64,000 nucleotides of DNA from Bacteroidota bacterium. Its GTDB lineage: Bacteria; Bacteroidota; Bacteroidia; B-17B0; Aurantibacillaceae. Position 1 is the stretch's first letter, and each line of letters starts with the position of its first letter. Position numbers and translations under genes: made by a program. This document shows, piece by piece, positions 5,358 through 50,865 of the stretch. The stretch lies in the NCBI GenBank assembly GCA_043719555.1, contig JAYSTR010000085.1:672-64671 (forward strand), read 5' to 3'. The notes below the pieces were generated by a model. It was not told where the DNA came from. It saw only the letters and a list, made by a program, of their open reading frames with translations, and searched no databases.

Positions 5358-6110
5358 TTGTATGAAGTGAATAAAATTAAAGCCATATTAGTTGATGATG
5401 AAGAAGGCGCAAGAGATGTGCTTGAAAATTTGTTGCTTCGTTTTTGTCCAGAAGTTGAACTGCTAGCGAAGTGTATTAACTTAAAAGAGGCTGTAGAAAA
5501 AATTAATATCTTAAAACCAAATTTGGTTTTTTTAGATATAGAAATGCCAAACTATGCTGGTTACGAAATTGTAAATTTTTTTGATAAAATCGATTTCGAT
5601 ATTGTGTTCGTTACAGCATACGATCAATATGCCATTAGAGCATTCGAAATTGCAGCCATCGATTATTTATTAAAACCTATAGATATAGAACGTTTGAAAA
5701 AAGCTATTGGTAGGGTAGTGGTAAATGAAAATATAGAGCAACAAGCCGATAGACTTTCATTATTGAGTAGTTCATTGGAAGGTAAACAATTGAAAAATAT
5801 TATCGTTAGCGATAAAGGACAGCAAAATGTCGTTGCTATTGAAAATATTATAGCCATTGAAGCTCAAGAATCGTATTGCGTAATTTACACAATTGATAAA
5901 AAATTTACCGTAAGTAAAAATCTAAAGCATTTTGAAACTATTTTAGATACACTGCCACAATTTTTCAGAGCACATAAATCTTGGTTAATTAATAGTAAAC
6001 ATATCCAACATTACTCAAAATCGGAATTAACGATACAATTGTCTAATGGTATAATTACCAAGCTTTCTAAGTATAAAAAAGCGGAGTTCGAAGAGTTAAT
6101 TATTTCTTAA
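5358..6110 (+). CDS. LytTR-family two-component response regulator
   Basis: The receiver domain has ILVDDE, FLDIEMP and a conserved K in LLKP. The C-terminal LytTR DNA-binding domain has FFRAHKSWLIN. The start could also be the GTG at 5367. Confidence 0.85.
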   Translation: MYEVNKIKAILVDDEEGARDVLENLLLRFCPEVELLAKCINLKEAVEKINILKPNLVFLDIEMPNYAGYEIVNFFDKIDFDIVFVTAYDQYAIRAFEIAAIDYLLKPIDIERLKKAIGRVVVNENIEQQADRLSLLSSSLEGKQLKNIIVSDKGQQNVVAIENIIAIEAQESYCVIYTIDKKFTVSKNLKHFETILDTLPQFFRAHKSWLINSKHIQHYSKSELTIQLSNGIITKLSKYKKAEFEELIIS

Positions 6111-6211
6111 TAAATCCATTAACAAAGTAAATTGTCCGTTCCTGAACTATAATTAATCTTTGTAGGTTTTAGTTCTATGTTTGTTTTTAATTAATTTAAA
6201 AACAAACCACT

Positions 6212-9200
6212 ATGAGAAACTTTTTATTTACCCTATTAACGCTATTTATTGTTACAAAAGCTACTAGTCAATGCACAGTTGCTACCAATTCTTATTCATC
6301 TAATTTTGATAGTAATACAAACAATTTACTACCCACTTGTTGGACAACTCCATACACAAATGGTGGCTCAGAAGTAGGTGTAAATATTAATGGACAAGGT
6401 GTAGGTGGCTCTGTAGGTTATATCTATCTTAGTAATTCCGTTGGAGGGTCTCGTCATTTTGTTATGCCGAAAGTTACAAATGCTAACGGGATATTAAGTT
6501 TAACTGCTAAAAGAGCTATATCAGGAAATACAACTCCTATGGAAATTGGTATTATGACGGATCCAAATAACGTTGCCACATTTAGTGTTATGGCATCTTA
6601 TAATCTACCTCTCGCTTATACTACTTATAATGTTAATTTAGCTAACTACACAGGTACTGGACAATACATAGCTGTTAAATCATATTTTAGTAATACCGGC
6701 ACTGTTGCTTGGATTGACAACGTTAGTTATAATGCCTTTTCAGGATCAGGGCCTGTAATTTATGTTGATAAAGACGCTATTGGATTAAATAATGGTACTA
6801 GTTGGACGGATGCTTATACTGACTTAAATAATGCACTAACAAACTCAACATTTAATGTTGGGCAAGAAATGTGGATTGCAGATGGAACATACAAACCACA
6901 TGCTATAGATAGAAATATTGCTTTTACATTACCTCATAATGCGAAAATATATGGTGGTTTTTCAGGAACAGAAACCTTAAAATCACAAAGAAATCCGTCT
7001 CTATATCCTGTTATTTTAAGTGGAGATTTAAGTGGAAATGACAATGCTGTTTTAGACCCAACCGAAGCAACGCGTCAAGATAATTCATATCATATTTTTA
7101 GTCTTGTTGGAGAAAAAAGAGATATCATCGTGGATGGTGTTACTTTAAGTGGAGCTAATGCCAATGGAACAGGAAATGAAAATACGGCAAGTGTAATTTT
7201 AATGACACATATAGCGGCAAATAATTTAATATCAGTTGATTTTTCTGATGTAATTATCGAAAATAATACGGCTACAAATGCAGCTATTTTTCAAGCTATA
7301 CAATTTGCTACTCAAGGTTCAACTTCAATTTTAAATCTTTCGAAATGTACTGTTAGAAATAATAAAGGAAACAGTGTTTTAGGCAATATGTTATACGTTG
7401 GACATAGAACTTACAATCAAAAAACTTACGGAACAATTTTAAATTCATTGTTTTACAAAAACACATGTGCTAGTGGAACATCATCAGTAATATATAATAA
7501 AGTAAATGGTGGTTCTGGTGTAGTTACTCCAATTTACGTTAGAAACTGTACATTCTCTAATAATTCATCAACTACTGGTAATGTTGTTTATCTTAACAGC
7601 TCTACTGATAGTAAATTTTCAAACAATATATTTTATGGTAATGGAAATACTACACCAGTTGGTTGGGTTAATTCCGGTGTAATAGCATCAGTTTTTAATA
7701 ATTGTATTTCTGAAGATCCAGCATTTGGTTTAAACCAAAATCCTTTATTTAAGGATGCAGCAAATAATGATTATCATTTCGATTGCTCAGGGAATTCGCC
7801 TGCAATTAATGCAGGAAACTCAACTGGAATATCAGTATTGGAAAAAGATTTTGATGGTAATTCCAGATTAGTAGGTACAGTTGATATTGGCGCTTTGGAA
7901 TATAGAAATAGAATTTCTACATCAGCTTCTAATATTTCTGTCTGCCTTGGAAACAATATATCTCTGACTGCAAATTATGGAACTGGGATAAGTTGGTCAA
8001 GTGGCATTACTGATGGTGTTCCTTTTACTCCAACTATTTCACAAAACTATACTGTAACTGGAATAAATGAAAATGGATGTGCAGATCAGGCCGTTTCTGT
8101 AATTACAGTAAAGTCCCCCACATTTTCAATTAATAGTGGTTCGATATGTTTAGGTAAATCTTTTACAATTACACCAACAGGAGCAACTTCATATACTATT
8201 GAAGGAAATACAGCTATAAAAACGCCTACCACAACTACAACTTACACTGTTTTAACAGAATATAGTTCAACTCGTTATGCAATTAATTTTGATGGAACCA
8301 ATGATTATTTATCTGCCGCAATTTCTCCTTCATTTAACTATAATTTAGGGTATAGTTATGAAGCATGGGTAAAATTAGACATTGCGGGTGCAGGTGCATC
8401 AAGAGCAATTTTCTTTACAGGAACAAGTGCTTCAAGTAATATCGAAATCTACACTCAATCTGGGTCAAATTATTTAGTAGTAGTTCATAATAGAGGTATA
8501 GTTGGTTTTACATCAAGTGGGCAGACCTTTCCTATACCTCCAATTAACACATGGTTTCATTTAGCGGTAACTTATGATGGAAGTGCAATTAAAGTATATT
8601 ATGATGGTGTACTAAAAACGCCAAACTCAACAATAGCTGGTTCTCCTTTACAAAAATCAATAGGAGCCGAGTTAAGTATTGGATATATGAAAAGTATGAT
8701 TGGAAACCCAGGATTTGGCTTTTCAACACTAAAAGGTAAAACGGAAGAAGTTAGAGTCTGGAACAATGTAAGAACTCAGTCTGAGATTTTAGCAAATAAA
8801 AATAATTGTGTTCCTATAACTTCAACAGGTCTAGTTAATTATTATCCCTTTTTAGGTGGAAGTGGTGTAAATTCAGTAGATGAAGTGTCGGGTAATAACT
8901 TAACTTTAAATAATATGAATTCGAGTAATTGGGAGGCAGCTACAAATGTTAGTTGTTCAAATGTGTGTGCGATTAATTCAATTTTATCATCTTCAATTAC
9001 AGTAAATCAATTACCGAACATTGGTATAGTTTCAAATAATACTTTGCTTTGTGTTGGCGAAACCACTAGTTTAACTGCAAACGGAGCAACAAGTTATACT
9101 TGGAATACAGCCTCTTCAAATACGATTATTTCTATTTCGCCAACAGTAACAACTTCATATAGTGTTATAGGAACGGATGATAATGGATGTAAAAACACTT

Positions 9201-9475
9201 CAACTATAACACAAAGTGTATCTATTTGTACCGATATTCAACAGATTGAAAAAGTAACTACTGAATTTAATATTTTCCCAAACCCAGCTACATCTTTAAT
9301 AACAATACAATCGAATGAAGTGATAGAAACAATTACAGTATTTAATGTTGCTGGATGTAAAGTTAAATCCGAAACAAAAACAATATTTTCTGTAGATGAA
9401 CTTTCTTCGGGGATGTATTTCTTGCAAATCTCTACTAAAAATGGAATGGTTACAAAACGATTTATAAAAGAATAA
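6212..9475 (+). CDS. Secreted multidomain T9SS cargo protein (beta-helix region, Ig-like repeats, LamG/concanavalin-like domain, T9SS C-terminal sorting domain)
   Basis: Signal peptide is followed by the LamG-type YAINFDGTNDYL...WFHLAVTYDG...EEVRVWN. There are repeated Cys-containing Ig-like modules (CLG...LTA.GA.SY.W). The C-terminal tail FNIFPNPATSLITIQ...GMYFLQISTKNGMVTKRFIKE is typical of type A T9SS sorting domains. Confidence 0.75.
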   Translation: MRNFLFTLLTLFIVTKATSQCTVATNSYSSNFDSNTNNLLPTCWTTPYTNGGSEVGVNINGQGVGGSVGYIYLSNSVGGSRHFVMPKVTNANGILSLTAKRAISGNTTPMEIGIMTDPNNVATFSVMASYNLPLAYTTYNVNLANYTGTGQYIAVKSYFSNTGTVAWIDNVSYNAFSGSGPVIYVDKDAIGLNNGTSWTDAYTDLNNALTNSTFNVGQEMWIADGTYKPHAIDRNIAFTLPHNAKIYGGFSGTETLKSQRNPSLYPVILSGDLSGNDNAVLDPTEATRQDNSYHIFSLVGEKRDIIVDGVTLSGANANGTGNENTASVILMTHIAANNLISVDFSDVIIENNTATNAAIFQAIQFATQGSTSILNLSKCTVRNNKGNSVLGNMLYVGHRTYNQKTYGTILNSLFYKNTCASGTSSVIYNKVNGGSGVVTPIYVRNCTFSNNSSTTGNVVYLNSSTDSKFSNNIFYGNGNTTPVGWVNSGVIASVFNNCISEDPAFGLNQNPLFKDAANNDYHFDCSGNSPAINAGNSTGISVLEKDFDGNSRLVGTVDIGALEYRNRISTSASNISVCLGNNISLTANYGTGISWSSGITDGVPFTPTISQNYTVTGINENGCADQAVSVITVKSPTFSINSGSICLGKSFTITPTGATSYTIEGNTAIKTPTTTTTYTVLTEYSSTRYAINFDGTNDYLSAAISPSFNYNLGYSYEAWVKLDIAGAGASRAIFFTGTSASSNIEIYTQSGSNYLVVVHNRGIVGFTSSGQTFPIPPINTWFHLAVTYDGSAIKVYYDGVLKTPNSTIAGSPLQKSIGAELSIGYMKSMIGNPGFGFSTLKGKTEEVRVWNNVRTQSEILANKNNCVPITSTGLVNYYPFLGGSGVNSVDEVSGNNLTLNNMNSSNWEAATNVSCSNVCAINSILSSSITVNQLPNIGIVSNNTLLCVGETTSLTANGATSYTWNTASSNTIISISPTVTTSYSVIGTDDNGCKNTSTITQSVSICTDIQQIEKVTTEFNIFPNPATSLITIQSNEVIETITVFNVAGCKVKSETKTIFSVDELSSGMYFLQISTKNGMVTKRFIKE

Positions 9476-10083: not shown

Positions 10084-13000
10084 TTATTGTAAGTTAAATC
10101 GTAAACTAAATCCGGCATTTGTATTTGCTGTTGGAAACGAGTTTGATGTTTGAGGTGTTGTTTTAACCCAATCATAAAACAAGCGTAAGTTTACATTTTG
10201 AGTTAATTGATAATCAATGGCCGTTTTTAGGGATATAATATTTTGTCCGCCCGTTGGTGTACTTATCTCTTCATTAATACGACGAATAATCGACATATTT
10301 CTGCGGTAAGATAAGTCTAATTTAAAGTTTAAATCGCTCTCAACAGGCTTTCCTTTTATTTTAATGGCATTTATTTTTAATTTCGGATAACGGTAACCAA
10401 CGCCTATTACATATTCTCTGCCGCGTGTTTCAATAATTTGCGGTCCTGTAATATTTAAGTTAACCGTTTTATCTTTTTTAATTTCAAAATTTCCACTCAA
10501 ACCAGGTTTATTAAATTTAACATCAAATTTAATTAAAGGGCTAAATGCTTCGGTAATTGTTGCGCCTTGTATGTTATATTTTGGGTTAAAGTTAGCCGTT
10601 TGTCCTGTTGCAGAGCTTTGCACAGGTACACGACTTAAATTATCTGCATACCCATCTTGGTTGCCATCAAAAAATAAGTTGTTGTTTGTAAAATTACCCA
10701 ATGTATACATAGCACGATAGGAGTGACGCAAGGTAACCGATTGAAAATATTTTTTCATGAATTTTAATTTACCTAAACCATCCCATGTTACTGTCCAGTT
10801 TGGCAATGGAATTTGTTTAAACATTTTATCTGTTGCATTATTTCGTAATTTTTTTCCTGTATAAGTTTCAAAAAATGCACCCATTAATACATCTTGTTGC
10901 GTATTAGAATAGCCATCATAATAGGTTCTTTTTCTAATATCCAGTAATTCACCTTTCGAATCACCATTTTTTGAGGCTAAATCTTTGGCAACATCTGGTC
11001 TAATTAATAAAAACTCCTGAAATAATTCAGATGATCCATCTTTAGTGTTTTTATCTTTAAAAGCTTTTCCTAAGGTAAAAACACTAATACTATAATTACC
11101 ACTATTTGTTGGAGTTTCAAATAAATAACCTTTATTTCTATCGTCACTATTTCGTAATGAATCACCACCATATCTTACATATTGAGATGTATTTGATCCA
11201 TAAGTTTTAGTACCATTAAATTCAATTTTTAAACTTCCATGTGGTTCCACATTGGCACGATATGAAAAATTATTTGATTTTGTTGTAGTATATGGCGTTA
11301 ATTGATTTGTGTTTTGCACTAACCAACCATTATCAATAGATTTACGTAAAATACTATCGTTCATACCAGCTATAAATCCAAAGCCTGGTGCTAAATTTTT
11401 TGCAGGGTCTAATCCGATGTATTTTGAGCTTGGTTCAAAACCAGGTAAACCAGTTCCATTTGTTTGTTGGTAAGTTAATGATACTTGTTTGAGCATCATA
11501 ACTCCTCGGGCTAAAAACTCACCAATATCTTTAAAGTTGTTTTCTTTTTTCGGTTTTAAAGAATCTTCTTTAGTTTTTGGAGCTTTTAATAAACTACTTG
11601 ATTTCCCTTTAGATGAACCACCGCCTGAGTTTACTCGCCTGAAATAAGGAATTTTATTATATAACATCGTCATATTAAAATTACCTGTTAAGTTTTTAGT
11701 GTTGGTATTTTGAATGGTATTACCAACGCTTTCTTGTGCAAATGGCCTGCGAGACCAAGTGTATGAGGAGCTATAACGCGCTGTTGAATTAATAAAATCA
11801 AAGGCAGGAATTTTATTAATAGGTATTTGGTAGTTTACATTAGCAGCATGACGGAAGTTTGTGTTTTCTCCTAATTTTCTAATAATGTTATTTCTAATTT
11901 GAACTTTCTCACTATCGGTATCAATTGCATCAATCGATTCCATAATTCGTCCATCATTATTTGCGTTATAATCAAACTTTAAATTTTTGGTGAAATTCCA
12001 TTGTAATGTATAATTTCGGCTCATTAAAAATGTTTTATTAAACTGAGCTTTGGTTAAATTATCCGAAGAGCCAGTATAAAAACTAGTTAAATCTCTATTT
12101 AGTAACTCACTATAATTTCTATTTAAATCAACATTAAATGCAAAGGAACTTGGCAACGGTGTAAAGTTGATATCCTTAATTAATGCAAACCATTTGTTAT
12201 TGATAATTTTGTTGGTTGATTTTTTAAAAGGGGCCCACGGTTTTGCATTTATCGAATAGTTGTAAGCTAACGCACCTCTGTATGATTTAATAATACTTTT
12301 TTGAATATTTACATTATGTCGTTTTACTTCATTGTAAGCATATGTTACCGAAAAATTGGAAACATCCCAAGGCATTGGTTTAGCGCCTTCTTTTCTTAAG
12401 CCATCTATTTTCACATTCGAAAAATTATAACCTTTTCGTGTTGTTTTATCTTGTGCGTTCTCTTTAATTTGTTTTTTTAATTCTTTGCTTATACTAGGAT
12501 TATCAATTTTAATATCTGGATCGTATGGGCTAAACTGAGGAGTAATAATGGTTTGTCCGTATGAGTAGTATACTGGTACATTTACTTTCCATTTTTCAGG
12601 AAAAAATTTGCCGAGTTGTAAAGTTGTAGTCGCATCATACAAAAAGTTTTTTTCTCTGCTACGTTCACTGATTTTTTTCTCAATACTACCAAAAAATGGA
12701 GTGCTGTATGTTGCAGCTAATGAGGCTTGTCCTAAATCGGCTAATTTAGCTTGCACGCGCCCTGTAGTTGCCCAACCACCTTTATTGGTAAAATCAGTTA
12801 AACGTAATTCATTCACCCAAACTTCTACACATTTTGATAAGCCTCCATTATCAATAGGGTTACGGATACCAATCATAATGCTTTTTATACTCGCTAAATT
12901 AGGATTACCAACAACGGTAATTTTATTATTACCATCTTGTTCTGTAAATGGTTTTTGTATAGCAACTAAATCTAAATTTGTTGTCTCATTTCTGTTAATT

Positions 13001-16000
13001 TTTGCCGCAGCAATTTTCTCAAAATCTATAATAAACTCATTATCATCAGGCCATACTATTGATTTATCGGCATCAAGATTATTATCGTAAACTCCTTTTC
13101 CGGTTAATTTTACAGGGATTTCATACTCATAATAGTTATTTGTAAAGTCGGTACCTAATCGCACAAAAACACTAACATCGCCATCATTTAATGGTTGATC
13201 ATTTAATTTTTCGGCATGCATAAATAGTTTCATTTTTTTAAATGAACGTACATCTAATTCTGTGTTTTTAGTAATTGCTCTGCTGTCGCCATCCTTTAAG
13301 CTGCATACTCTTAACGATAAAGCTTGCTCATTTAATAAGGTTTGATTTGTTGTTTGTGCATTTTGTTGTTGTTCTATTTTTGGAGGCAATACATAGTTTA
13401 CAGGTGTTTTCGATCCATTTTCTTGCAAGCTTACACCAGATACATCAAACGTTGTTGTGTTATCATCATTGGCAATGTATTCGCCTGGTTTTAATAAATC
13501 GTATGCATATCGTCTCCAATCACTTCGTACTAATTCAAAACGGGCTAAACGACAGATAATAGGTTTATCAAAGCCTTTCATAAATACACGCATAAAACGA
13601 ATAGAGTTAAACCCTTCTATTTCTCCAACGGATGATTCAAATTCGCTTACAGGAATTTTAAACTGGTACCATTTTACAGTTTTTTGAATATTATCAATGG
13701 TTGCATTTCCATCAGTAACGTTAACAATATAGTTATGTCCCACATTTGCTGGATTTAAATCCTGAGGCGAAATTTTCACATGGTATTGGTAATAGTTTTC
13801 AACTTCATTTAAGGTATTGTCTTTATTAATATCCTCAATATTTGGAATGTTTGATGCTGCGCTTGGTATAGATTTATCTTCGTATTGATTTTCAGTTGGA
13901 CTATTGCCTTCTGGTCCATTATATTTTTTATATCGTCTAATTGTATTTCCTTCTTCTGCGCTTAAACCATCAAATTTTGAAGCACTTCTAAAAAACTGAT
14001 AATTATCTGAGCTTGGGTCATTACGGGCAGCGTCAACATCAGTACCTGTTGCTCCAGGAAACGAATTTAAGTCGGTAATAAAATTTTTAAACTTTCTTGC
14101 TTCCGCTGTATCTGATAAGCCATCATAGCCAACATCCTGAAAAGGTCTATCATTATTATCGTTTACAAATGAGTTAGAAACGGGTGATATTAATGGTGAA
14201 CTTCCAATATTAGATTCGATGACTGGTAAACTTGAATTGGCTGTGCTTGCACCAGGAACACCATTTTCATACATCATTTTCCCATCTTTTAAAATATCTT
14301 CGCTCACGTTACCTAAGTTAAAATACATATCTCCACTTGGCAAACTCCCTGAATTCATATCAGGGTAGGTAGTCGAATTATAATCACTATTAAACGGATC
14401 CATCATCCAAAACTGAATATACTCTACATTGGCGGCCTGAAAATCATTGGTTTCAATACGACGCATAATACCGCCCCAACGCGTGGATGGATCTTTTAAT
14501 CTTCCATTTGATAAAATACCACTCGATTTTGCTAAAGTATTTGGCTTTACATCATAATTATAAGGTCCACGCTCTCCTGGATAAAAAGCCATATCTAAAA
14601 CTGATAATACAACTGGTTGGTTGTTAGCCGGTGTTTTACTAGGGAATAATTCTGTTTCTAAAACCTGACGCATGAAGTTATTAGAATAAGTTTCTTTAGT
14701 TATGTTACTTGGCTTTGAACTATTACTTGTTCCGTAAAAAATCGGATCAATGGTGTACCAGTTAAATTGCGCACGGTTTTTACCTGTATTTATATCGTCA
14801 AATAATGATGCTTCTGGAAACAAACGAGGTTGGCCTTGAGGTATACTTGCCAATTGCCATGCACTAGGGCTTTTTAAATCGATTAAAGAAATACTTCCTT
14901 CAAAATCATCAATGTATGAATTTCCGCTTTTTCCAATAGCTTTGGAATTACCTGGTATTAACTGAGCAAATTCTCCCTGAGTAGTAATACTGCTCATTTC
15001 CTTAGTATTGATTAATGGTATTTTATCAATTAAACGGGTTAAAAAAGGTACGTCAGTTTTGTAGTTATAATCTACACCCCAAATAATATTTGATACAGGC
15101 TCATCACCAATATTTACTTTTTGGGTAATTGGTTTTTCATTTAAACGCAAAAATGTACCCCCTAAAGTTAAATCACGATTAACAATAAAATCTAAACGTG
15201 TACCCATTAAACTTTTTTGTTGCACATTAAATAAAGAGTTACTCTCTGTACTTACCTTAATATTAGCGCCTGAGTTTAAAATACTTTCGTTAATAATTTT
15301 AACACGCCCTAATGTATAATCAACTGTATAATCAACGTTTTCTGTTAATTTTTGTCCGTTAGCAGTAACCACAACTGAGCCTTGCGGTATGTTTAAGGCG
15401 TTTAACGAAATCTCTGATCCGGCCGATGATTTGTATGAACCCTTAATTTTGTAACGATTTTTTTCGGGTAACTGCATCGCGTTAGTTCTTGTTGAATCAT
15501 ACAATTCCTGAAAAATATATTTGTTGGCATTTGGAAAATCAGATGCAGCAAACTTTGATCGTAAGTTATTACCAAAAGGTTCTTTTGATGATAAATAAAC
15601 TCTTCCATTATTTGGATTAATTGTAAAATCTTTAATGAAGTCAAAAACACCATCTGGGCTTCTATCTCCATTCACATTTAATTTATCTAAATCCATTGCT
15701 TGCACTAATAACTTGCCATTAATAGCACCGTATGGAATATATGGAATATCAATTCCTGTTTCGATATTATTATAATAGATATCGCATTTAAAATCTTGAG
15801 CATTTAAATTGTATGCTCCTAAAGAATAAACGTTTTTCATCATTAAATCCCAATTACTGTATTTAGGATTTGTGTTTGAACCACTCTTTAATAATTTTAA
15901 GTATAATGGTCCAGATGTAAACTGATCGCTAAACTCACCTACTTGATAGTTTTTACCGTTATAGGTGTATTGGTAAGCAACTGCAACAGACTGATCATTA

Positions 16001-17481
16001 CTAATAGTTTGGTTAATAGAAATAAAACCCAAACGTGTGTTGTAGGTAAACTCAGTAGGATTTAATTTACGCGCGTTTTGATAAAACTCAAAATCACGAG
16101 CAGGAGTCATAAATTTACCTCCATTACAAGTATTACCAACATTTGCTTGTAAGTTGGAGGTTACTGCAGATGCATTTGCGGATAAACGCGGAGGCATTAA
16201 GTTATTACTAGTATCCGTTAAAATTTTATATAAATTATTGGCATTATTATCTGGAAAATCTCCTGGAGCATCAACAATTACAAAAATAGGATTTGTACCG
16301 CAAGTTGGGTCTCTTAAATCTTTATTAACGTGGGTTGAATCCTCTCCTAAATCAGTAAAGGCTGCGTAGCTTCGCACTTGCTCTGCATTACCAGATAAGT
16401 TAGAAACGTAAACCTCAATTTTAGTAATAACGATAGGCGTTGTAACAACGGGTAGAGTACTCATCCATTGGTCGTAATTATCTCTAAAATAATGTCCTAA
16501 GAAAAAATGTTTGTTAACCTCGTAGTTATCTGCACTAACCGAAAAATATTGTGTTTGTGCGCCGCCTTGTACCGAAACCTCTTGTTTTTTACCACGTTGT
16601 TGCGATAATAAAGCCGTTGCTGTTAAACGCCCAAACTGAAATTTAGTTTTAACACCAAATAAACTTTGGCTACCTTGTATTAACGATGAGTTTAAAGGTA
16701 AAGCAACGTTACCAGCTTCAATTGTTTTTAAAATTTCATCCTCGTAACCGTTGTATTCAATTTTCATTTGATTTTCCCAATCAAAAGAAGCCTCGGTATT
16801 ATAACTTGTAGAGATGCGTAATTTATCACCAATTTTACCAATTAGGTTTAATTGAATACGCATATTAAAATCGAAATTGGTAACCTTTTGCTGACGCTGA
16901 GGAATAGCAGGGTTTAAGGTTTTGTTTCGGTTTAATGCGAAAATTAACTCCGCAGTTCCTGCAGGTTTAATATCAACAGTGTTTCCACCAAAAATACGAT
17001 CAAATAACTCGCTATTAACTTGTAATTTAGGAACTAAACTTTTTTTATTTTGGTTTACTAAATCGTCTGCTTTGATTTTCGATTTCCAATGATCTTTAAC
17101 GGCTTGCTTAAATAATTGATCTTGGTAATCCTGAAACTCCACATAGGTTTCAGGGCGATAATCCATATTACCAATCTTTTGCTTAATGTCGTAGTTTCCC
17201 GTACTTGGATTGTATTCTGTTGATGTATTTACGTTTGCTGGGTTTTCTAAATATAATTTACTCTTATCATCATAATTTGGCTGACCGCCATTATTATCGT
17301 TAAAAGGAAAATGTAATTCGTCTTTGCCAACAATAGGGGAGTCTATTACGGTAGCAAATGGGCTTTTGCTATAGTTTGGTTTTGATAACGGATTGCTTTT
17401 AGCCTTAGAGCTAACTACAATACTCATTAACCCAGCCGAGCAAGTACCAATTACAAGAAATTTTATAACTCCTTTTACCAC
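10084..17481 (-). CDS. sprA: T9SS translocon / gliding motility protein SprA
   Basis: 2465-aa giant outer-membrane beta-barrel protein of Bacteroidota. Size and sequence character match SprA (Sov), and it sits next to ruvA. Confidence 0.9.
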   Translation of the reverse strand: MVKGVIKFLVIGTCSAGLMSIVVSSKAKSNPLSKPNYSKSPFATVIDSPIVGKDELHFPFNDNNGGQPNYDDKSKLYLENPANVNTSTEYNPSTGNYDIKQKIGNMDYRPETYVEFQDYQDQLFKQAVKDHWKSKIKADDLVNQNKKSLVPKLQVNSELFDRIFGGNTVDIKPAGTAELIFALNRNKTLNPAIPQRQQKVTNFDFNMRIQLNLIGKIGDKLRISTSYNTEASFDWENQMKIEYNGYEDEILKTIEAGNVALPLNSSLIQGSQSLFGVKTKFQFGRLTATALLSQQRGKKQEVSVQGGAQTQYFSVSADNYEVNKHFFLGHYFRDNYDQWMSTLPVVTTPIVITKIEVYVSNLSGNAEQVRSYAAFTDLGEDSTHVNKDLRDPTCGTNPIFVIVDAPGDFPDNNANNLYKILTDTSNNLMPPRLSANASAVTSNLQANVGNTCNGGKFMTPARDFEFYQNARKLNPTEFTYNTRLGFISINQTISNDQSVAVAYQYTYNGKNYQVGEFSDQFTSGPLYLKLLKSGSNTNPKYSNWDLMMKNVYSLGAYNLNAQDFKCDIYYNNIETGIDIPYIPYGAINGKLLVQAMDLDKLNVNGDRSPDGVFDFIKDFTINPNNGRVYLSSKEPFGNNLRSKFAASDFPNANKYIFQELYDSTRTNAMQLPEKNRYKIKGSYKSSAGSEISLNALNIPQGSVVVTANGQKLTENVDYTVDYTLGRVKIINESILNSGANIKVSTESNSLFNVQQKSLMGTRLDFIVNRDLTLGGTFLRLNEKPITQKVNIGDEPVSNIIWGVDYNYKTDVPFLTRLIDKIPLINTKEMSSITTQGEFAQLIPGNSKAIGKSGNSYIDDFEGSISLIDLKSPSAWQLASIPQGQPRLFPEASLFDDINTGKNRAQFNWYTIDPIFYGTSNSSKPSNITKETYSNNFMRQVLETELFPSKTPANNQPVVLSVLDMAFYPGERGPYNYDVKPNTLAKSSGILSNGRLKDPSTRWGGIMRRIETNDFQAANVEYIQFWMMDPFNSDYNSTTYPDMNSGSLPSGDMYFNLGNVSEDILKDGKMMYENGVPGASTANSSLPVIESNIGSSPLISPVSNSFVNDNNDRPFQDVGYDGLSDTAEARKFKNFITDLNSFPGATGTDVDAARNDPSSDNYQFFRSASKFDGLSAEEGNTIRRYKKYNGPEGNSPTENQYEDKSIPSAASNIPNIEDINKDNTLNEVENYYQYHVKISPQDLNPANVGHNYIVNVTDGNATIDNIQKTVKWYQFKIPVSEFESSVGEIEGFNSIRFMRVFMKGFDKPIICRLARFELVRSDWRRYAYDLLKPGEYIANDDNTTTFDVSGVSLQENGSKTPVNYVLPPKIEQQQNAQTTNQTLLNEQALSLRVCSLKDGDSRAITKNTELDVRSFKKMKLFMHAEKLNDQPLNDGDVSVFVRLGTDFTNNYYEYEIPVKLTGKGVYDNNLDADKSIVWPDDNEFIIDFEKIAAAKINRNETTNLDLVAIQKPFTEQDGNNKITVVGNPNLASIKSIMIGIRNPIDNGGLSKCVEVWVNELRLTDFTNKGGWATTGRVQAKLADLGQASLAATYSTPFFGSIEKKISERSREKNFLYDATTTLQLGKFFPEKWKVNVPVYYSYGQTIITPQFSPYDPDIKIDNPSISKELKKQIKENAQDKTTRKGYNFSNVKIDGLRKEGAKPMPWDVSNFSVTYAYNEVKRHNVNIQKSIIKSYRGALAYNYSINAKPWAPFKKSTNKIINNKWFALIKDINFTPLPSSFAFNVDLNRNYSELLNRDLTSFYTGSSDNLTKAQFNKTFLMSRNYTLQWNFTKNLKFDYNANNDGRIMESIDAIDTDSEKVQIRNNIIRKLGENTNFRHAANVNYQIPINKIPAFDFINSTARYSSSYTWSRRPFAQESVGNTIQNTNTKNLTGNFNMTMLYNKIPYFRRVNSGGGSSKGKSSSLLKAPKTKEDSLKPKKENNFKDIGEFLARGVMMLKQVSLTYQQTNGTGLPGFEPSSKYIGLDPAKNLAPGFGFIAGMNDSILRKSIDNGWLVQNTNQLTPYTTTKSNNFSYRANVEPHGSLKIEFNGTKTYGSNTSQYVRYGGDSLRNSDDRNKGYLFETPTNSGNYSISVFTLGKAFKDKNTKDGSSELFQEFLLIRPDVAKDLASKNGDSKGELLDIRKRTYYDGYSNTQQDVLMGAFFETYTGKKLRNNATDKMFKQIPLPNWTVTWDGLGKLKFMKKYFQSVTLRHSYRAMYTLGNFTNNNLFFDGNQDGYADNLSRVPVQSSATGQTANFNPKYNIQGATITEAFSPLIKFDVKFNKPGLSGNFEIKKDKTVNLNITGPQIIETRGREYVIGVGYRYPKLKINAIKIKGKPVESDLNFKLDLSYRRNMSIIRRINEEISTPTGGQNIISLKTAIDYQLTQNVNLRLFYDWVKTTPQTSNSFPTANTNAGFSLRFNLQ

Positions 17482-17488
17482 GTATTAG

Positions 17489-18082
17489 TTAAATATTTTT
17501 TAGCGCTGATTTTATCAGCAGTTCAACATTATCAGTAGATACACCTTGCTGTTTAATAGATTTTTCTATCGCTTTTTCGGCTGCCAATTTCTGAAAACCA
17601 AGTGTAACTAGTGCCATTAACGCCTCATCTTTATTTTTATTGTATGCAGGGCTTAAAATTTGAGAAATTCCACCTTCGTGTTTTCCCATTTTTCCTTTTA
17701 AATCAACCACAATACGCTGAGCCGTTTTTTCGCCAATGCCTTTAATGCTTTTTAATAAAGCGACATTGGCCGTGTTAATGGCTCCTGCAATTTCGGGAGC
17801 AGATAACGAGGATAGCATAAGTACGGCACTACCGCCACCAACACCAGATACCGAAATAAGCTTACGGAATAAATCACGCTCCTCGGCATCAAAAAAACCA
17901 AAGTACTTAGGATTATCGTCGCGCACATACACGCTTTCGATATATAATTTAGCCTGAGTAAGAGGTTGAATTTTGGAATAGGTATTTAGCGATATAGTAA
18001 CGCCATAACCAACCCCATGGGTTTCAATAACCACAAAAGCAGGGTTTAATTCAGCAATTTGACCAGATACGTAATTTATCAT
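17489..18082 (-). CDS. ruvA: Holliday junction branch migration complex subunit RuvA
   Basis: MINYVSGQI...VIETHGVGY N-terminus and the HhH motif KGIGEKTAQRIV. Confidence 0.9.
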   Translation of the reverse strand: MINYVSGQIAELNPAFVVIETHGVGYGVTISLNTYSKIQPLTQAKLYIESVYVRDDNPKYFGFFDAEERDLFRKLISVSGVGGGSAVLMLSSLSAPEIAGAINTANVALLKSIKGIGEKTAQRIVVDLKGKMGKHEGGISQILSPAYNKNKDEALMALVTLGFQKLAAEKAIEKSIKQQGVSTDNVELLIKSALKNI

Positions 18083-18281
18083 ACAAGAGTGTGAAAGTAA
18101 CTAAAAATGTACGAATTTTTAAATATAACAAGCATTTTATTGCACTGTAAATCAGTTGTTTGCAAATAAAACAGACGCTTGTTTAACAGCCATTTGTTAA
18201 TATAATTTTAATGATATGTTAATGTAAATAACATTTACGATGTTTTTTTTGTAAATTTGTTGAACTAAAAAATTAAACACT

Positions 18282-18914
18282 TTGGAAATAGTATTAGTTG
18301 TTACTCTTTTAATTGCCGGTTATTTATTAGGTTCGATACCAACAGCTGTTTGGTGGGGGCAAAAATATTACGGAATTGATGTTCGTGAATTTGGTAGTGG
18401 TAATGCCGGAGCTACTAATACTTTTAGAGTATTAGGCAAAAAAGCTGGTATCCCTGTTTTAATTATTGATATAGTAAAAGGTAGCGCTGCTGTGTTACTG
18501 GCTTTCTTTTCTACTTATGAGTTTGATAGCAATGAGTTTGTAAACTTACAATTAGCTTTGGGTATGACGGCTTTAGTTGGCCATGTGTTCCCGATTTTTG
18601 CAGGCTTTAGAGGCGGAAAAGGCGTAGCTACTATTTTAGGCGTAGTTATTTGCTTAACACCAATTACTAGCTTGTTAGTATTATTAGTGTTTTTAACGGT
18701 TTTATTAACTACTCGTTTTGTATCCTTATCATCTATTACGGCAGGTATTAGCTTCCCGATATTATTGAATTTAGTACTTAAAAACCAAAACCAAACTTTG
18801 ATTATTTTTTCGATTTTTGTGGCGGTATTATTAGTAGTGACTCACAAAAAAAACATTACCCGCTTATTTAAAAAACAAGAACCTAAGGTTAATTTGTTTG
18901 CTAGTAAAGCCTAA
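18282..18914 (+). CDS. plsY: Glycerol-3-phosphate acyltransferase PlsY
   Basis: GSIPTAVW, GSGNAGATN and FRGGKGVAT motifs. TTG start, with a TAAATTTG -7-like box at 18252-18259. Confidence 0.85.
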   Translation: MEIVLVVTLLIAGYLLGSIPTAVWWGQKYYGIDVREFGSGNAGATNTFRVLGKKAGIPVLIIDIVKGSAAVLLAFFSTYEFDSNEFVNLQLALGMTALVGHVFPIFAGFRGGKGVATILGVVICLTPITSLLVLLVFLTVLLTTRFVSLSSITAGISFPILLNLVLKNQNQTLIIFSIFVAVLLVVTHKKNITRLFKKQEPKVNLFASKA

Positions 18915-18934
18915 TTTTAAAATTATATATTATG

Positions 18935-18966
18935 AAAAAACCGAAGCTAATAGTTTCGGTTTTTTG
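18935..18966. terminator. Rho-independent terminator after plsY
   Basis: aaaaaaccgaa-gctaatagt-ttcggtttttt hairpin with a T tract. Confidence 0.6.
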
Positions 18967-19006
18967 TTTTTGTGAATAATGTTTTGCGACTACGCGCCCG
19001 TTTTTT

Positions 19007-19070
19007 ACCTGTCCAATTTATGCCTTTTTACGTTAACCCGCAAGAAATTGTGCTTAGGCGTTGTTAGCAG
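19007..19070 (-). repeat. attC-like site A (degenerate), immediately 3' of ORF 19079-19639
   Basis: On the coding strand: CTGCTAAC-AACGCCTAAGCA-CAATTT...AAATTG-GACAGGT. Its right arm (19037-19070) is homologous to 19816-19845. The partner arm is weak, and the predicted R' lacks GTT. Confidence 0.3.
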
Positions 19071-19078
19071 TTGTGGCT

Positions 19079-19639
19079 TTACACAGTCTTAGGTTTCCAG
19101 GTCTTGTCGAACGGTCGATTTTCGCCAGTTACGTTTCCGATGTCTATGGTTACTAAATTATTTGCAGAACCGCCGTTATTTGGTGCGTCCAAGATTATTG
19201 AAACAAGAATTAATGGAATAAAGTCAATATTATTGTCAACTAATAATTGAAATATGTCGTTACTATTAAATGAAATATTATTAAGTTGAACAATTGAAGC
19301 CACTTGTATTGAGTCTTTGAAGATTGACACTTTTTTACCTAAATGCTGTACAATCTCATATCTTGTGTCACCTATTGTGATTTCGTAATGCGGTTTAAAT
19401 CTAGTAAGCTGTGTGAACTGTCCAACTACGTTATTATATTTGATGTCAAATATTCTTTTGCGAAATGGTCTGAAACGGCGTTTAGCTTCTATTAGTTGTC
19501 TGCTGCCTTTATGTATTACAATATTATCAAATATTAAGAAGCCTGTATTTTCTCCTATGAATTTTTCATTGGTTTCATTTACAGTTATTATGTATCGTTC
19601 ACCAATTTCAAGACTTGGTTCTTTGATAATTATTTCCAT
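19079..19639 (-). CDS. Hypothetical protein (orphan, cassette-borne candidate)
   Basis: 186-aa ORF with an ATG start and no signal peptide. I recognise no family by eye. There is a weak resemblance to repeated beta-strand (LURP-one/tubby-like) patterns only. Confidence 0.55.
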   Translation of the reverse strand: MEIIIKEPSLEIGERYIITVNETNEKFIGENTGFLIFDNIVIHKGSRQLIEAKRRFRPFRKRIFDIKYNNVVGQFTQLTRFKPHYEITIGDTRYEIVQHLGKKVSIFKDSIQVASIVQLNNISFNSNDIFQLLVDNNIDFIPLILVSIILDAPNNGGSANNLVTIDIGNVTGENRPFDKTWKPKTV

Positions 19640-19671
19640 AAGTGTCGTGCTTGTGTTTTATCAAGCCATTA

Positions 19672-19845
19672 CTGCTAACGTTTTCGCAATTTGCTTCAGG
19701 CGGGTTGAAACCGTTTCTACCGAAATGCTTATAACAAAGCTAAATGTAATTAGCCAATTGCAAAAGAAAAATAAAAAAAGTTTTCTACCGCTTTTTGCAA
19801 TTGCTTTGATGTCTGCCCCGCTTGAGCAAATTGTGTGTTAGGTGC
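19672..19845 (-). repeat. attC-like site B: 174-nt nested imperfect palindrome between the two orphan ORFs
   Basis: The arms are 19674-19704 (gctaacgttttcgcaatttgcttcaggcggg) and 19816-19845 (ccccgcttgagcaaattgtgtgttaggtgc). They pair CTAAC/GTTAG, then an unequal spacer, then CAATTTGCT (9 bp), a 1-nt bulge and GCGGG. An inner inverted repeat, caattgcaaaag (19755-19766) / ctttttgcaattg (19791-19803), lies inside. Confidence 0.5.
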
Positions 19846-19865
19846 TGGCGATTAGCTCTTTCTAT

Positions 19866-20372
19866 TTATTTCTTTAGAAGATTAGAGTCCTTTTTCATGA
19901 ATGATGTTTGTGTTTTTTTAATTTCCAACAATATTGAATCTAAATTGTTTTTTCTTAACGCTTCAAACTGCTCGATGTTTATAGTTGTCGGATTATTTAA
20001 TTGTTTATTCGAGTAATAAATTGAAATAACTGTCGACAAAATAGATATTAAAATAGCGACTATAGCAAAATAAGTAGCTTGTATAGACGATTTTCTAGCG
20101 CTTTGTAATTCGTGAAATTCCAATAAATGAAAATAACCTGATTGTTCTAAGAAAAATGTCTGATTAGGATTAATTGGTGCATTTTGATTATTTCCACCTG
20201 GGCTTTCCAAAGATATATATAGTGCGGCAAAGAATTGTCTTAAAGCAAATTCTTCGTATTCATAGCCATTGTCCTTGAGATGTTTTTCTAATTCAGGAAA
20301 TTTAAATGGTTTGCCAATATTGTCTTTGCCGAATTGTAATACGGCAATATATAAATCATCATTTGTTTTCAT
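19866..20372 (-). CDS. Hypothetical single-pass membrane protein (orphan, cassette-borne candidate)
   Basis: The ORF track starts at the GTG at 20396. The ATG at 20372 (MKTNDDLY...) is more plausible because the GTG lies inside the flanking repeat. One TM helix (YFAIVAILISILSTVISIYY). Confidence 0.55.
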   Translation of the reverse strand: MKTNDDLYIAVLQFGKDNIGKPFKFPELEKHLKDNGYEYEEFALRQFFAALYISLESPGGNNQNAPINPNQTFFLEQSGYFHLLEFHELQSARKSSIQATYFAIVAILISILSTVISIYYSNKQLNNPTTINIEQFEALRKNNLDSILLEIKKTQTSFMKKDSNLLKK

Positions 20373-20392
20373 ATGCTTGTTGTTTAACGCTT

Positions 20393-20458
20393 GCACCTAA
20401 CTAGGTTATAGACGCTACTTTATAGCGCAAATCCCATCACCGTTAGTTGTATAGGTGC
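20393..20458 (-). repeat. attC/attI-like site C upstream of ORF 19866-20372
   Basis: A 66-nt element closed by GCACCTA (20393-20399) / TAGGTGC (20452-20458), with an inner CTAAC (20397-20401) / GTTAG (20442-20446). It overlaps two ~21-nt direct repeats. Confidence 0.35.
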
Positions 20459-20533
20459 TACTTTGTATCGCATAGTTATTTGTCAAATGTAATGGTTTTG
20501 TTATCGGTATCAAATAGTAAATTATTCAAAACA

Positions 20534-20566
20534 AAAAAGCTTCGAGTTATATACCCGAAGCTTTTT
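20534..20566 (-). terminator. Rho-independent terminator after eno
   Basis: aaaaagcttcg / cgaagcttttt hairpin directly downstream of the eno stop. Confidence 0.6.
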
Positions 20567-20582
20567 ACAATTTATAGTAAAA

Positions 20583-21884
<1,302 letters not shown>

Positions 21885-35887: not shown

Positions 35888-37045
35888 TTATTCTTTAATA
35901 AATTTAGTTTTAGTAAAAGTTCCCTCTTCTGTTTTAATAGAAATAAAATAAACACCAGGTTTAAGTTTTTCGATATTGATTGAATTCGTAGTTGTTTTTT
36001 CATTTATTAATTCGCTTCCGATTATATCTGTAACTATCACGTAATTAGTGTTTTGACTAACGCTTGATAAATTAAAATATAAAGTGTTTTTTGCAGGATT
36101 TGGAAATACAGTTACTACTTGTTTTGATTGTTTACTTTCGTTTACAGAAGTTAATATTGATAAATTATTTTTGCGAAAAAAACGCCATATTTCATTACTC
36201 GCTTTAAAATCCTGATTTGTATTAATTCCACTTAAAGGATAAGGAGATCCAGGCCACGAATGTCCGCCATTAATTACTTTTAAAAGTTCTACCGAGCTAC
36301 CATTCGTTCCTCCAGTATATACATAATGTTCGGCAGTGCAATTATCGCTTGTGCTAATATTAGGAAAGGCTGTAAACTGTGGAGTAGGGTTGCAGTTGTT
36401 TTTTACAACCCATCGTTTTATTAAGGTATCAACATGTAAGCAGGATACAATGCCACCAACACCAGTGTAAGATACCGTTGCATCATTAGTGCCATGAATT
36501 TGCATAATAGGCATAGGATGTAAAGGATTGCAATTAACAATATGTGTAGAAATCATTCCGCCTGAAACAGAAGCGATAGCAGCAATTTTGTTGCTTAATA
36601 AACAAGCTAAATCGTAACTCATAAAACCACCATTACTTAAACCTGTACTGTAAATTCGATTTTGATTAATGTTGTACTGAGCACTAATCGTTGTAATCAT
36701 ATCTAACGTAAAATTAACATCAACAGAAGCTGAAGCTACAGTTCCAAAGTTTGCCCATCCTGTATTTCCACTTGTTGAAAGCCCTTGTGGATGTACGATG
36801 ATGAAATTGGCTGTGTCTGCAATTGGTCTAAAATCGCCATAAAATTCTTGCTGTGTATTATTAGAAGTGTAACCATGAAAATTAAATACTAATGGAGTTG
36901 GATTTAACGAATTGTATATGGCAGGAACATAAACTTTGTAAGTTCTGGCAATGCCTCCACTTGTAATGGTATATGAAATATCGGTTTGTGCAATTGAAAA
37001 AAAAGAAATTAAAATAATTGAAAAGATGAGTACATGTTTTTTCAT
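35888..37045 (-). CDS. Secreted esterase (PHB depolymerase / LpqC-like) with T9SS C-terminal sorting domain
   Basis: Signal peptide, nucleophile elbow GLSNGG, HGTND, and the C-terminal tail VTVFPNPAKNTLYF...GVYFISIKTEEGTFTKTKFIKE. Confidence 0.75.
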   Translation of the reverse strand: MKKHVLIFSIILISFFSIAQTDISYTITSGGIARTYKVYVPAIYNSLNPTPLVFNFHGYTSNNTQQEFYGDFRPIADTANFIIVHPQGLSTSGNTGWANFGTVASASVDVNFTLDMITTISAQYNINQNRIYSTGLSNGGFMSYDLACLLSNKIAAIASVSGGMISTHIVNCNPLHPMPIMQIHGTNDATVSYTGVGGIVSCLHVDTLIKRWVVKNNCNPTPQFTAFPNISTSDNCTAEHYVYTGGTNGSSVELLKVINGGHSWPGSPYPLSGINTNQDFKASNEIWRFFRKNNLSILTSVNESKQSKQVVTVFPNPAKNTLYFNLSSVSQNTNYVIVTDIIGSELINEKTTTNSINIEKLKPGVYFISIKTEEGTFTKTKFIKE

Positions 37046-49923: not shown

Positions 49924-50865
49924 CTACGCTGGAGTTACTGTAGATAATACAGCATTCATATTTCTAACAGCTTCAGCAGATTTTGCAAATAATGCTTTTT
50001 CTTCGTCGTTTAAGTTGAAATCAACAATTTTTTCCCAACCTGTTTTGCCAACGATTACTGGAACACCGATACAAATATCTTTTTGTCCATATTCGCCCTC
50101 TAATTGAACGCAACAAGTAAATAATTTTTTCTGATCGTTAATGATACTATCAACTAAAGATGCTACTGATGCACCAGGAGCGTACCAAGCAGATGTGCCT
50201 AGCATACCAGTTAATGTTGCGCCACCAACCATCGTATCAGCAGCAACTTTTTTCAAAGTATCAGCATCTAACATTTGTGAAGCAGGAACGCCATTATAAG
50301 TAGCTAAACGAGTTAAAGGAATCATTGTTGTATCTCCGTGTCCACCAATTACATAACCTTGTACGTCAGAAGCGGGAACATTTAATGCTTGAGATAAATA
50401 ACATTTAAAACGGGCACTATCTAAAATACCACCCATACCAATAATACGGTTTTTAGCTAATTTACTTTCTTTTAATGCTAAGTAGGTCATTGTATCCATT
50501 GGATTAGATACAACGATGATAATTGCATTTGGAGAGTGTTTTAAAACATTTTCTGTTACTGTTTTAACAATTCCTGCGTTAATTCCAATTAACTCTTCGC
50601 GAGTCATACCTGGTTTACGAGGAATACCAGATGTAATTACAACTACTTCAGACCCTGCTGTTTTAGCATAATCATTAGTACTACCACTAATACGAGTGTT
50701 AAAACCGTTTAATGTTGCTGTCTGCATTAAATCTAATGCTTTTCCTTCTGCGAAATTTTCTTTAATGTCAAGAATTACTACTTCGCTTGCGATACCTCTT
50801 ACTGCAATATACTCTGCACAAGATGCGCCTACATTACCTGCGCCAATTACTGATACTTTGCTCAT
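49924..50865 (-). CDS. mdh: Malate dehydrogenase (LDH-like MDH family)
   Basis: KVSVIGAGNVGA Rossmann motif, SGIPRKPGMTREEL and VIGGHGD. Confidence 0.95.
   Translation of the reverse strand: MSKVSVIGAGNVGASCAEYIAVRGIASEVVILDIKENFAEGKALDLMQTATLNGFNTRISGSTNDYAKTAGSEVVVITSGIPRKPGMTREELIGINAGIVKTVTENVLKHSPNAIIIVVSNPMDTMTYLALKESKLAKNRIIGMGGILDSARFKCYLSQALNVPASDVQGYVIGGHGDTTMIPLTRLATYNGVPASQMLDADTLKKVAADTMVGGATLTGMLGTSAWYAPGASVASLVDSIINDQKKLFTCCVQLEGEYGQKDICIGVPVIVGKTGWEKIVDFNLNDEEKALFAKSAEAVRNMNAVLSTVTPA

Follow-up and report, generated by a model that had tools for sequence, protein, structure and literature searches.

A short, partly decayed gene-cassette array, probably of integron type, between plsY and eno of a Bacteroidota bacterium

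What are two small orphan genes doing, each bracketed by an inverted repeat of its own, between two core genes of a Bacteroidota bacterium? The genes lie on the minus strand of a 64,000-nt stretch of contig JAYSTR010000085.1 (assembly GCA_043719555.1; ‘the window’ in what follows, at its full length), in a 1.7-kb cassette interval that sits between the convergent terminators of plsY and eno (Table 1). An original prediction had seen in them an integron-like array without an integrase: two cassettes, each an open reading frame (ORF) whose first bases complement the inverse core of the recombination site that belongs to it, with the crossover placed between the G and the TT of the core. From a comparison with related loci (labelled L001, L002 and so on), we judge it probable that the plsY–eno interval is a short, partly decayed two-cassette array of integron type, arranged on the minus strand and moved by an IntI-type mechanism.

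Both ORFs are real, and both are orphans with few relatives. ORF1 matches the Pfam family Tubby_C_like at E = 0.008, below the curated cutoff, and has relatives in the form of five proteins in a database of 5.8 billion; ORF2, for which no Pfam family scores above its cutoff, has 11 homologues in the same database, all on short contigs from metagenomes or metagenome-assembled genomes, and since these are also 168 amino acids long its start codon is confirmed. Of the relatives of both ORFs taken together, almost every one comes from a short metagenomic contig. The four short words on which the prediction was built are likewise present: GTTAGCAG (19063-19070) and CTGCTAAC (19672-19679) to either side of ORF1, GTTAGGTGC (19837-19845) and GCACCTAAC (20393-20401) to either side of ORF2; a repeat finder extends the first pair to 17 nt at 88% (19063-19079 / 19663-19679) and the second to 14 nt at 86% (19837-19850 / 20388-20401). 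The sites to which these words belong, termed A, B and C below, are richer in G+C than their surroundings, as had been noted (41%, 38.5% and 40.5%, respectively, against 31.7% for the window). Taken within the window alone, short repeats of this kind do not exceed chance: 75 inverted pairs of 8 nt or more are present in the interval, and a scan for TAAC, an 8-bp L box and GTTA, a crude attC-like rule, yields around three chance matches per 64 kb; the significance above chance comes instead from the comparison with related loci. More specific is the combination GCAAATTG-N(1-12)-GTTAG, found in the window solely as the two arms of site B, where 0.1 occurrences would be expected. As a detector the crude rule was dropped for its lack of specificity, and a stricter, energy-filtered version was dropped as well, having missed known sites in L001 and L008. 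One match to the crude rule, TAAC...TTTAAAAC / GTTTTAAA...GTTA at 50399-50558, falls inside a malate/lactate dehydrogenase gene (49924-50865); we attribute it to chance, in line with the background that the rule should give.

A first part of this comparison concerns the ends of the units. In the cassette model, a unit would comprise one ORF together with its own hairpin-forming recombination site and would move as a whole by site-specific recombination, the crossover falling in, or right beside, the GTT of the core word (GTTAxxxxx) that closes the site on its 3′ side. Within the excised circle the first bases of the cassette would rejoin its own site and pair there with the inverse core (xxxxxTAAC), so that every ORF would come to be surrounded by an inverted repeat specific to its cassette. 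Both units in the window have this form: the start of cassette 2, GTTAGGTGC, matches its own R'' box, GCACCTAAC, at 9/9 positions and opens with GTTAGGT, an exact fit to the GTTRRRY core, whilst the start of cassette 1, GTTAGCAGT, matches its R'' box, ACTGCTAAC, at 9/9 positions and at 15/17 over the extended pair. We then scored the 19 units for which both ends are available, drawn from the window and from L001, L002, L008, L011, L089, L092 and L095. The five variable bases that follow GTTA agree with the complement of the unit's own xxxxxTAAC at 4.16/5 positions, compared with 1.76/5 for unrelated units and 1.86/5 for R'' against R' of one site (permutation p ≤ 1e-5); 11 units match at 9/9 positions, each by means of a different word (for example GTTAGTGCC/GGCACTAAC, GTTATGCGT/ACGCATAAC and GTTAGGGGC/GCCCCTAAC). 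Such agreement between a start and its own end is what the cassette model predicts, because in the circle the start of the cassette would form the outer half of the R' box that is paired with R''. The rule that had been proposed for two cassettes therefore holds across the 19.

The same units are found in different company, and it is these contexts that settle the matter. Swapped ORFs in relatives, with breakpoints at the cores, had been set beforehand as a test of the prediction, and the test was passed for both genes. Homologues of ORF2 that are 78-81% identical occur in L096/L097, L098 and L099, placing this unit in four contexts, the window included; its start (GTTAGGTGCAAG.G) and its end (CGCCAG(C/T)ACCTAAC) are kept in all four, and the up- and downstream DNA differs between contexts right up to the GTTA. 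In L099 (65-568) and L098 (3-119), the ORF2 cassette carries an extra ORF of 167 amino acids ahead of the ORF2 homologue; the window's cassette is without this ORF but has an identical first 14 nt (GTTAGGTGCAAGCG), suggesting an internal deletion. The ORF1 unit is present in three contexts (window, L002 and L001) with different neighbouring ORFs, and in both related loci AAGCCACAACTG(C/T)TAAC is conserved 3′ of the stop codon. In L002, a 73% identical homologue lies between a homologue of site B on its upstream side and AAGCCACAACTGCTAAC on its downstream side, as in the window; the ends of the cassette 1 unit are the same around this homologue, and the upstream neighbour is a different ORF, on the opposite strand. 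In L001, a 61% identical homologue is part of a run of small same-strand ORFs, each followed by a site of the form ...TAAC / hairpin / GTTA.... In related arrays, the inverse core often contains the stop codon: GGTAAC and GATTAAC in L001, CTGCCTAAC in L008 and GCGCCTAAC in L011. The possibility that a site belongs instead to the ORF downstream of it was ruled out, both by these stops inside R'' and by the differences in L box between the window and L002 upstream of the ORF1 unit.

The 3′ flank of plsY is itself polymorphic for cassettes within the clade, there being none after plsY in L009 and L010 (which have other genes there), one in L011 and two in the window. L011 is the closest available genome, with a PlsY 78% identical to that of the window, and its single cassette and family site follow directly after the plsY terminator in the orientation opposite to that seen here; downstream of this cassette, at 7667-8240, we also observed a flavodoxin-like NAD(P)H dehydrogenase pseudogene with in-frame stops. 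For a comparison of the whole plsY–eno interval between relatives, as originally envisaged, there is no clean empty site, because eno was within 6 kb of plsY in 0/80 related genomes.

Working along the minus strand, site B begins with its R'' box, GCACCTAAC (19845->19837), and L'' box, CAATTTGC (19833->19826); a long variable middle follows, before the L' box, GCAAATTG (19694->19687), the spacer CGAAAAC and the R' box, GTTAGCAG (19679->19672). The R boxes comprise an inverse core, ACCTAAC (RYYYAAC), and a core, GTTAGCA (GTTRRRY), and the site has an inner inverted repeat of 18 nt at 78% (19687-19704 / 19816-19833). As single-stranded DNA it folds with −33.7 kcal/mol, compared with −21.6 ± 3.1 for shuffled sequences (z = −3.9; 0/200 shuffles as good), and its non-coding strand folds 3.4 kcal/mol better than its coding strand. 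A search with an exact 20-base core of site B recovered seven metagenome loci, from which a profile was built for nhmmer; this returned 15 matches at E < 1e-6, all between ORFs, with site B itself matching at E = 4e-38. The resulting family, of around 175 nt, is seen between ORFs in eight other loci of uncultured Bacteroidota, with up to four sites in one array (L089) and three in another (L092); L089, L092 and L095 each hold two to four intact sites. No member of the family was found in searches of plasmid or phage collections. An independent Logan assembly (L004, from SRR22198338) is identical to the window over 17548-19697 and breaks off within site B, where a repeat would be expected to stop an assembly; this is consistent with more copies of the repeat in that sample.

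Aligning 12 family sites, which range in length from 136 to 190 nt, we see that TAAC is invariant and that GTT is present in 11, the remaining site having ATT. Constant parts of the alignment include TAAC with the invariant A that follows, a second stem (TGCGGGC / GCCGCA), an inner hairpin (GCATTTGCAAAA / TTTTGCAAATGC), the block TTAGCTTTGTTA.AAGCATTTCGGTAGA and the 3′ end AAAAC-GTTA. In the L boxes, the 10-12 nt next to each end, the sequence varies from site to site whilst complementarity is kept, with compensatory changes at 8/9 pairs; overall, 85% of cells are paired, as against 24-40% when the partners are slid, and 0/500 shuffles reach the observed value. Beyond the TAAC, the adjoining four bases are paired with those beyond GTTA of the same site in just 54% of cells, which is to be expected if that outer part belongs to the next cassette. 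The spacing between the boxes is asymmetric throughout the family: 1 nt, the invariant A, separates R'' from L'', and 4-5 nt (AAAAC) separate L' from R', generating a one-sided bulge; three of the 12 sites have 2 extra nt within L'' (CCAAGC-AG-TTGC versus GCAAGCTTGG). In 11 of the 12, the strand complementary to the ORFs folds better, by a mean of −2.8 kcal/mol, which argues against a structure formed in sense-strand RNA. Better folding of the recombining bottom strand has been described for attC sites, along with their canonical extrahelical bases (PMC5027507), and we would suggest that the sites studied here also recombine as folded bottom-strand DNA. An Rfam scan of 18500-21000 at a permissive threshold gave sub-threshold, terminator-like matches alone, Rfam being without an attC family.

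Two further observations concern L092. Approximately 400 nt upstream of the first site of its three-site array, at ~6050-6400, there are around eleven tandem repeats of ~22 nt (GTGTTTTTTCTTATGTACGGA-like), with no ORF spanning the repeat region between 5800 and 6800; these could be binding sites at the start of the array. One of its family cassettes (7816-9282, plus strand) encodes a 488-amino-acid protein with a class C beta-lactamase-fold domain (PF00144, E = 2e-66).

The sites at the two ends of the window's array are less well preserved. The first ~70 nt of site A resemble, by reading of the sequences, positions 2018-2117 of L002, the site that follows the ORF1 homologue there, but its middle and second stem are lost. 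It ends in GCAAAAC|ATTATTC (18974-18987), an A replacing the G of GTTA; the absence of GTT from its R' box, raised as a caveat in the original prediction, is thus borne out, ATT standing in its place in a decayed site, and because site A is degenerate the 3′ end of cassette 1 is approximate. Terminal sites are degenerate in other arrays too: L090 and L095 have AAC|ATTAGTC, L091 is truncated, and the last site of L095 (1296-1312) ends in AAC|ATTA instead of AAC-GTTA, like site A. Either these terminal sites have decayed, or their crossover lies 5′ of the canonical G|TT by one base. Site C precedes the first cassette and could be either ordinary flanking sequence or the side at which the array docks, comparable to attI. 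An attI-like homology between site C and the first junction of L011 was considered and rejected, the alignment not being significant (Smith-Waterman against shuffles, p ~0.25) and the likeness limited to TATAA(C/G)CTA|GTTAGG.

Site B also contains a match to the Bacteroidetes −33/−7 promoter consensus, TTTG / TAnnTTTG (PMC2483708), some 95 nt before the start codon of ORF1. With a spacer of N18-19, the consensus is present in nine of the 12 aligned sites; its −7 box occupies invariant alignment columns, and it is the best-conserved part of the whole family. The sites of L001 and L008 do not contain it, so the promoter is specific to the site family of the window. Facing outwards, it should transcribe the next cassette, here ORF1, and each cassette would in this way bring a promoter for its downstream neighbour. 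A second match lies upstream of cassette 2; judged by their consensus, both may be active. The promoter in site B was unforeseen by the original prediction, as were the asymmetric 1 × 5 nt spacing and the position of site C outside the family.

Table 1. Features of the plsY–eno interval (coordinates are those of the window; arrows give the minus-strand reading direction)
Feature	Coordinates	Strand	Description
ORF1	19079..19639	-	186 aa orphan; weak Tubby C-terminal-like / LOR similarity
ORF2	19866..20372	-	168 aa orphan; one predicted membrane-spanning stretch near the C-terminal third
Cassette 1	18980..19678	-	699 nt: TTAGCAGT... + ORF1 + site A
Cassette 2	19679..20400	-	722 nt: TTAGGTGC... 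+ ORF2 + site B up to G of R'
Left junction	20393..20401	-	core-type word GTTAGGTGC opening cassette 2
Site B, intact attC-like site of cassette 2	19672..19845	-	174 nt; fold, family profile, covariation
Site A, decayed attC-like site of cassette 1	18974..19071	-	R'' ACTGCTAAC at 19071->19063
Site C, sequence upstream of first cassette	20402..20475	-	two 23-nt direct repeats, 43 nt apart (20407-20429, 20450-20472)
Predicted Bacteroidetes-type promoter in site B	19735..19764	-	TTTG 19764->19761, N18, TAGCTTTG 19742->19735; points at ORF1
Promoter-like site upstream of cassette 2	20484..20514	-	TTTG 20514->20511, N19, TACATTTG 20491->20484; just outside the coordinates of the original prediction
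plsY terminator hairpin	18935..18965		15-nt arms, 93% complementary, then T run; lower interval edge
eno terminator hairpin	20534..20566		14-nt arms, 93% complementary; upper interval edge

Several results weigh against an integron-type array. Site B, at 174 nt in a family of 136-190 nt, is longer than the eight class 1 attC sites that we took from plasmids for comparison (aac(6')-29a, aac(6')-29b, blaVIM-2, arr-3, aac(6')-Ib4, dfrA5, aadB and aadA2), which measure 60-112 nt; that it exceeds the classical length had been anticipated. In the class 1 sites the R''-L'' and L'-R' spacings are a symmetric 5 and 5-6 nt, where the family here has 1 and 4-5, and the sole bulged base in the stem of site B is on the L' arm rather than on L''. 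Of the three sites in the window, B alone is intact: site A folds no better than shuffled sequences (z = +0.2) and gives no nhmmer match to the family at E ≤ 10, and site C has neither a significant fold (z = −1.2) nor an nhmmer match to the ~175-nt family. In addition, comparing the window with L096 and with L098/L099 shows that the site behind ORF2 diverges immediately after CTAAC-A; mosaic sites of this kind need within-host homogenisation of sites, or a crossover at the inverse core too. Lastly, there is the matter of the recombinase. Searches by tblastn with IntI1, XerC and XerD gave no match in the window or in the 99 loci, and Pfam identified no Phage_integrase domain in the 20 window ORFs of 197-461 amino acids (housekeeping families alone) or in those ORFs with Pfam data beside the arrays of L001, L008, L090 and L092; the absence of a tyrosine recombinase from the window, already part of the original prediction, thus stands by both methods. 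Beside related arrays, the ORFs have housekeeping functions or a link to the type IX secretion system. Since no recombinase was found in the window or beside the related arrays whose flanks were readable, we infer that the recombinase would be of the IntI-type tyrosine family and encoded elsewhere. Integrons are listed for Bacteroidota (PMC8618304), with only In0 elements and one complete integron (Salinibacter) reported from complete Bacteroidetes genomes (PMC9024848), and genuine integron cassettes are commonly met in attC clusters that have no integrase (PMC9024848).

That last point bears on the rival that we take most seriously, although we consider it unlikely: that the cassettes are genuine and mobile but are moved by another recombinase, whether a tyrosine or serine enzyme specific to Bacteroidota or one of Xer type, as in dif modules, with the sites merely analogous to attC. 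No IntI was found near six arrays or in the window, the geometry departs from that of classical attC (spacing of 1 × 5 nt, length of 136-190 nt, bulges frequently on the opposite arm), sequenced Bacteroidetes genomes very rarely contain a complete integron (PMC9024848), and the two terminal sites that end in AAC|ATTA, not AAC G|TTA, would fit a crossover one base off the canonical position. Against this, the hallmarks of an integron are all present, from the GTTA/TAAC cores, the R and L boxes and the complementarity of each start to its own end, to the bottom-strand fold and the single ORF per unit; arrays of true integron cassettes commonly have no integrase beside them; and the sites do not have the 11-6-11 organisation of dif, the constant words CTAAC and GTTAG being some 165 nt apart. 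A quite different explanation, which we regard as improbable, is that of an inverton, in which an invertase acting at GTTAxxxxx...xxxxxTAAC flips each ORF with respect to the upstream site's promoter, the outcome being on/off phase variation and not exchange. Inverted repeats of 9-17 nt do bracket each ORF with a promoter just outside, a unit of L002 (715-1182) has its ORF reversed between repeats of the same kind, and invertible promoters are common in Bacteroidales (PMC8748976). But inversion leaves unexplained how the same unit comes to lie beside different neighbours, why a covarying 175-nt hairpin stands between units and why arrays reach four sites, and in the window there is no alternative promoter from which the ORFs face away.

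The two remaining explanations do without cassettes, and the evidence given above has already told against both. Site B might be a self-spreading intergenic repeat that carries a promoter, akin to a miniature inverted-repeat transposable element (MITE) or a repetitive extragenic palindrome (REP), the flanking ORFs then being ordinary lineage-specific genes; its family is multi-copy, ~175 nt long, bounded by inverted words and confined to intergenic positions, it carries a promoter, and the independent assembly breaks inside site B. Self-insertion, however, predicts direct duplications of the target across the repeat, rather than the cassette-specific inverted complements that are found across the neighbouring ORF; R'' matches the start of the preceding unit and not the R' of its own site (4.2/5 against 54%), and the ORFs travel together with their flanking words. 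With the unit ends of all 19 units and the contexts of the ORF2 unit contradicting it, we give this explanation very little credence. Less credible still is that AT-rich intergenic DNA beside orphan genes produced the inverted repeats by chance: the plentiful inverted pairs of 8-9 nt in the interval, the background rate of the crude rule and the shuffle-like folds of sites A and C are all in keeping with it, yet it is refuted by the permutation over the 19 units, by the recovery of the family from independent metagenomes, by the clean covariation controls and by the contexts of ORF2.

Returning to an IntI-type array as our preferred reading, we can place the locus among known systems. In common with class 1 cassettes, each unit holds one ORF followed by an imperfect hairpin between an inverse core, xxCTAAC, and a core, GTTAGGT; the start of a unit complements the inverse core at its own end, there are R and L boxes, and the bottom strand folds better; units recur in different arrays, and the stop often falls inside the inverse core (L001, L008 and L011), as also occurs in classical cassettes. 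Classical attC sites are ~57-141 nt long. Where class 1 cassettes have 7 nt of complementarity between start and inverse core, there are 9-17 nt here; the extrahelical bases of attC are absent from site B or on its other arm, the site carries a promoter, no integrase is linked and the host belongs to a phylum in which integrons are rare. The sedentary integrons of Vibrio cholerae offer a second likeness, their sites being long, lineage-specific, highly similar and placed after every cassette, their cassettes consisting mostly of orphan genes and their assemblies breaking at the repeats. The Vibrio repeats measure ~120-130 nt and form a single, very long array next to intIA, whereas the arrays described here are short (1-4 sites) and scattered beside housekeeping genes, and neither an integrase nor attI is within reach. 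In possessing cassettes and sites without a nearby integrase, the locus resembles the attC site clusters that have no integron integrase (CALIN), which have been interpreted as degraded or fragmented integrons (PMC9024848); by the default of IntegronFinder 2 a CALIN needs at least two detected attC sites, and the window has one that is intact (B) and one remnant (A).

For the promoter, too, there are precedents. Promoters inside an array can express cassettes that are far from, or without, the platform promoter Pc (PMC8876359), and promoter-bearing or ORF-less cassettes and array-internal promoters feature in PMC6557892 and bioRxiv 10.1101/2023.11.21.568050. As with the promoters borne by cmlA, qac and toxin-antitoxin cassettes, and by ORF-less cassettes of oral bacteria and Vibrio, expression would come from within the array; passages on cassette promoters in the review PMC8876359, however, place them in 5′ untranslated or coding regions, not in attC, and the consensus described here sits inside the recombination site itself. 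A further comparison is with the pdif modules of Acinetobacter plasmids, small gene modules that lie between inverted copies of a site recognised by XerC/XerD and occur in various contexts. The pdif sites are 28-bp duplexes of 11-6-11 organisation in alternating orientation, as opposed to the ~175-nt hairpins seen here, which have a single orientation and covarying stems.

Elsewhere in the window, we observed an ORF of 393 amino acids (1176-2357, plus strand) in which an endonuclease III-type glycosylase (HhH-GPD and FeS motif, residues 35-204) is fused to an AhpC/TSA peroxiredoxin (247-375); an ORF of 2465 amino acids (10084-17481, minus strand) that adjoins ruvA and which, by its size and sequence, is a candidate SprA-like protein of type IX secretion / gliding; and an esterase with a Por_Secre_tail domain (35888-37045), a domain that assigns the window to Bacteroidota.

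The practical message of the window is a modest one: a decaying array, set between core genes, that holds two orphan genes of accessory character. The array is probably no longer freely mobile, given the decay of site A and a left flank (site C) that falls outside the family. Nor does the finding amount to a new principle; what distinguishes the site family is its length, its asymmetric spacing and its promoter. Its interest lies in the host, for integrons are best known from Proteobacteria and Bacteroidota are poorly sampled. On the showing of this locus and 15 related loci, uncultured Bacteroidota exchange orphan genes as cassettes, and the alignment and consensus obtained here make such cassettes searchable. 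If the promoter is active, it would provide one route by which cassettes far from any platform promoter are expressed, and standard attC models, tuned to shorter and symmetric sites, may under-count cassettes in this phylum. More tentatively, and with doubt on our part outweighing belief, some uncultured Bacteroidota may harbour a distinct branch of integrons, with sites of ~175 nt, a one-sided bulge of 4-5 nt instead of a symmetric central spacer, and a built-in outward promoter that serves the next cassette. Were that so, arrays would need no platform promoter, small clusters beside housekeeping genes would become possible, and the altered geometry of the sites may reflect a divergent or non-IntI recombinase.

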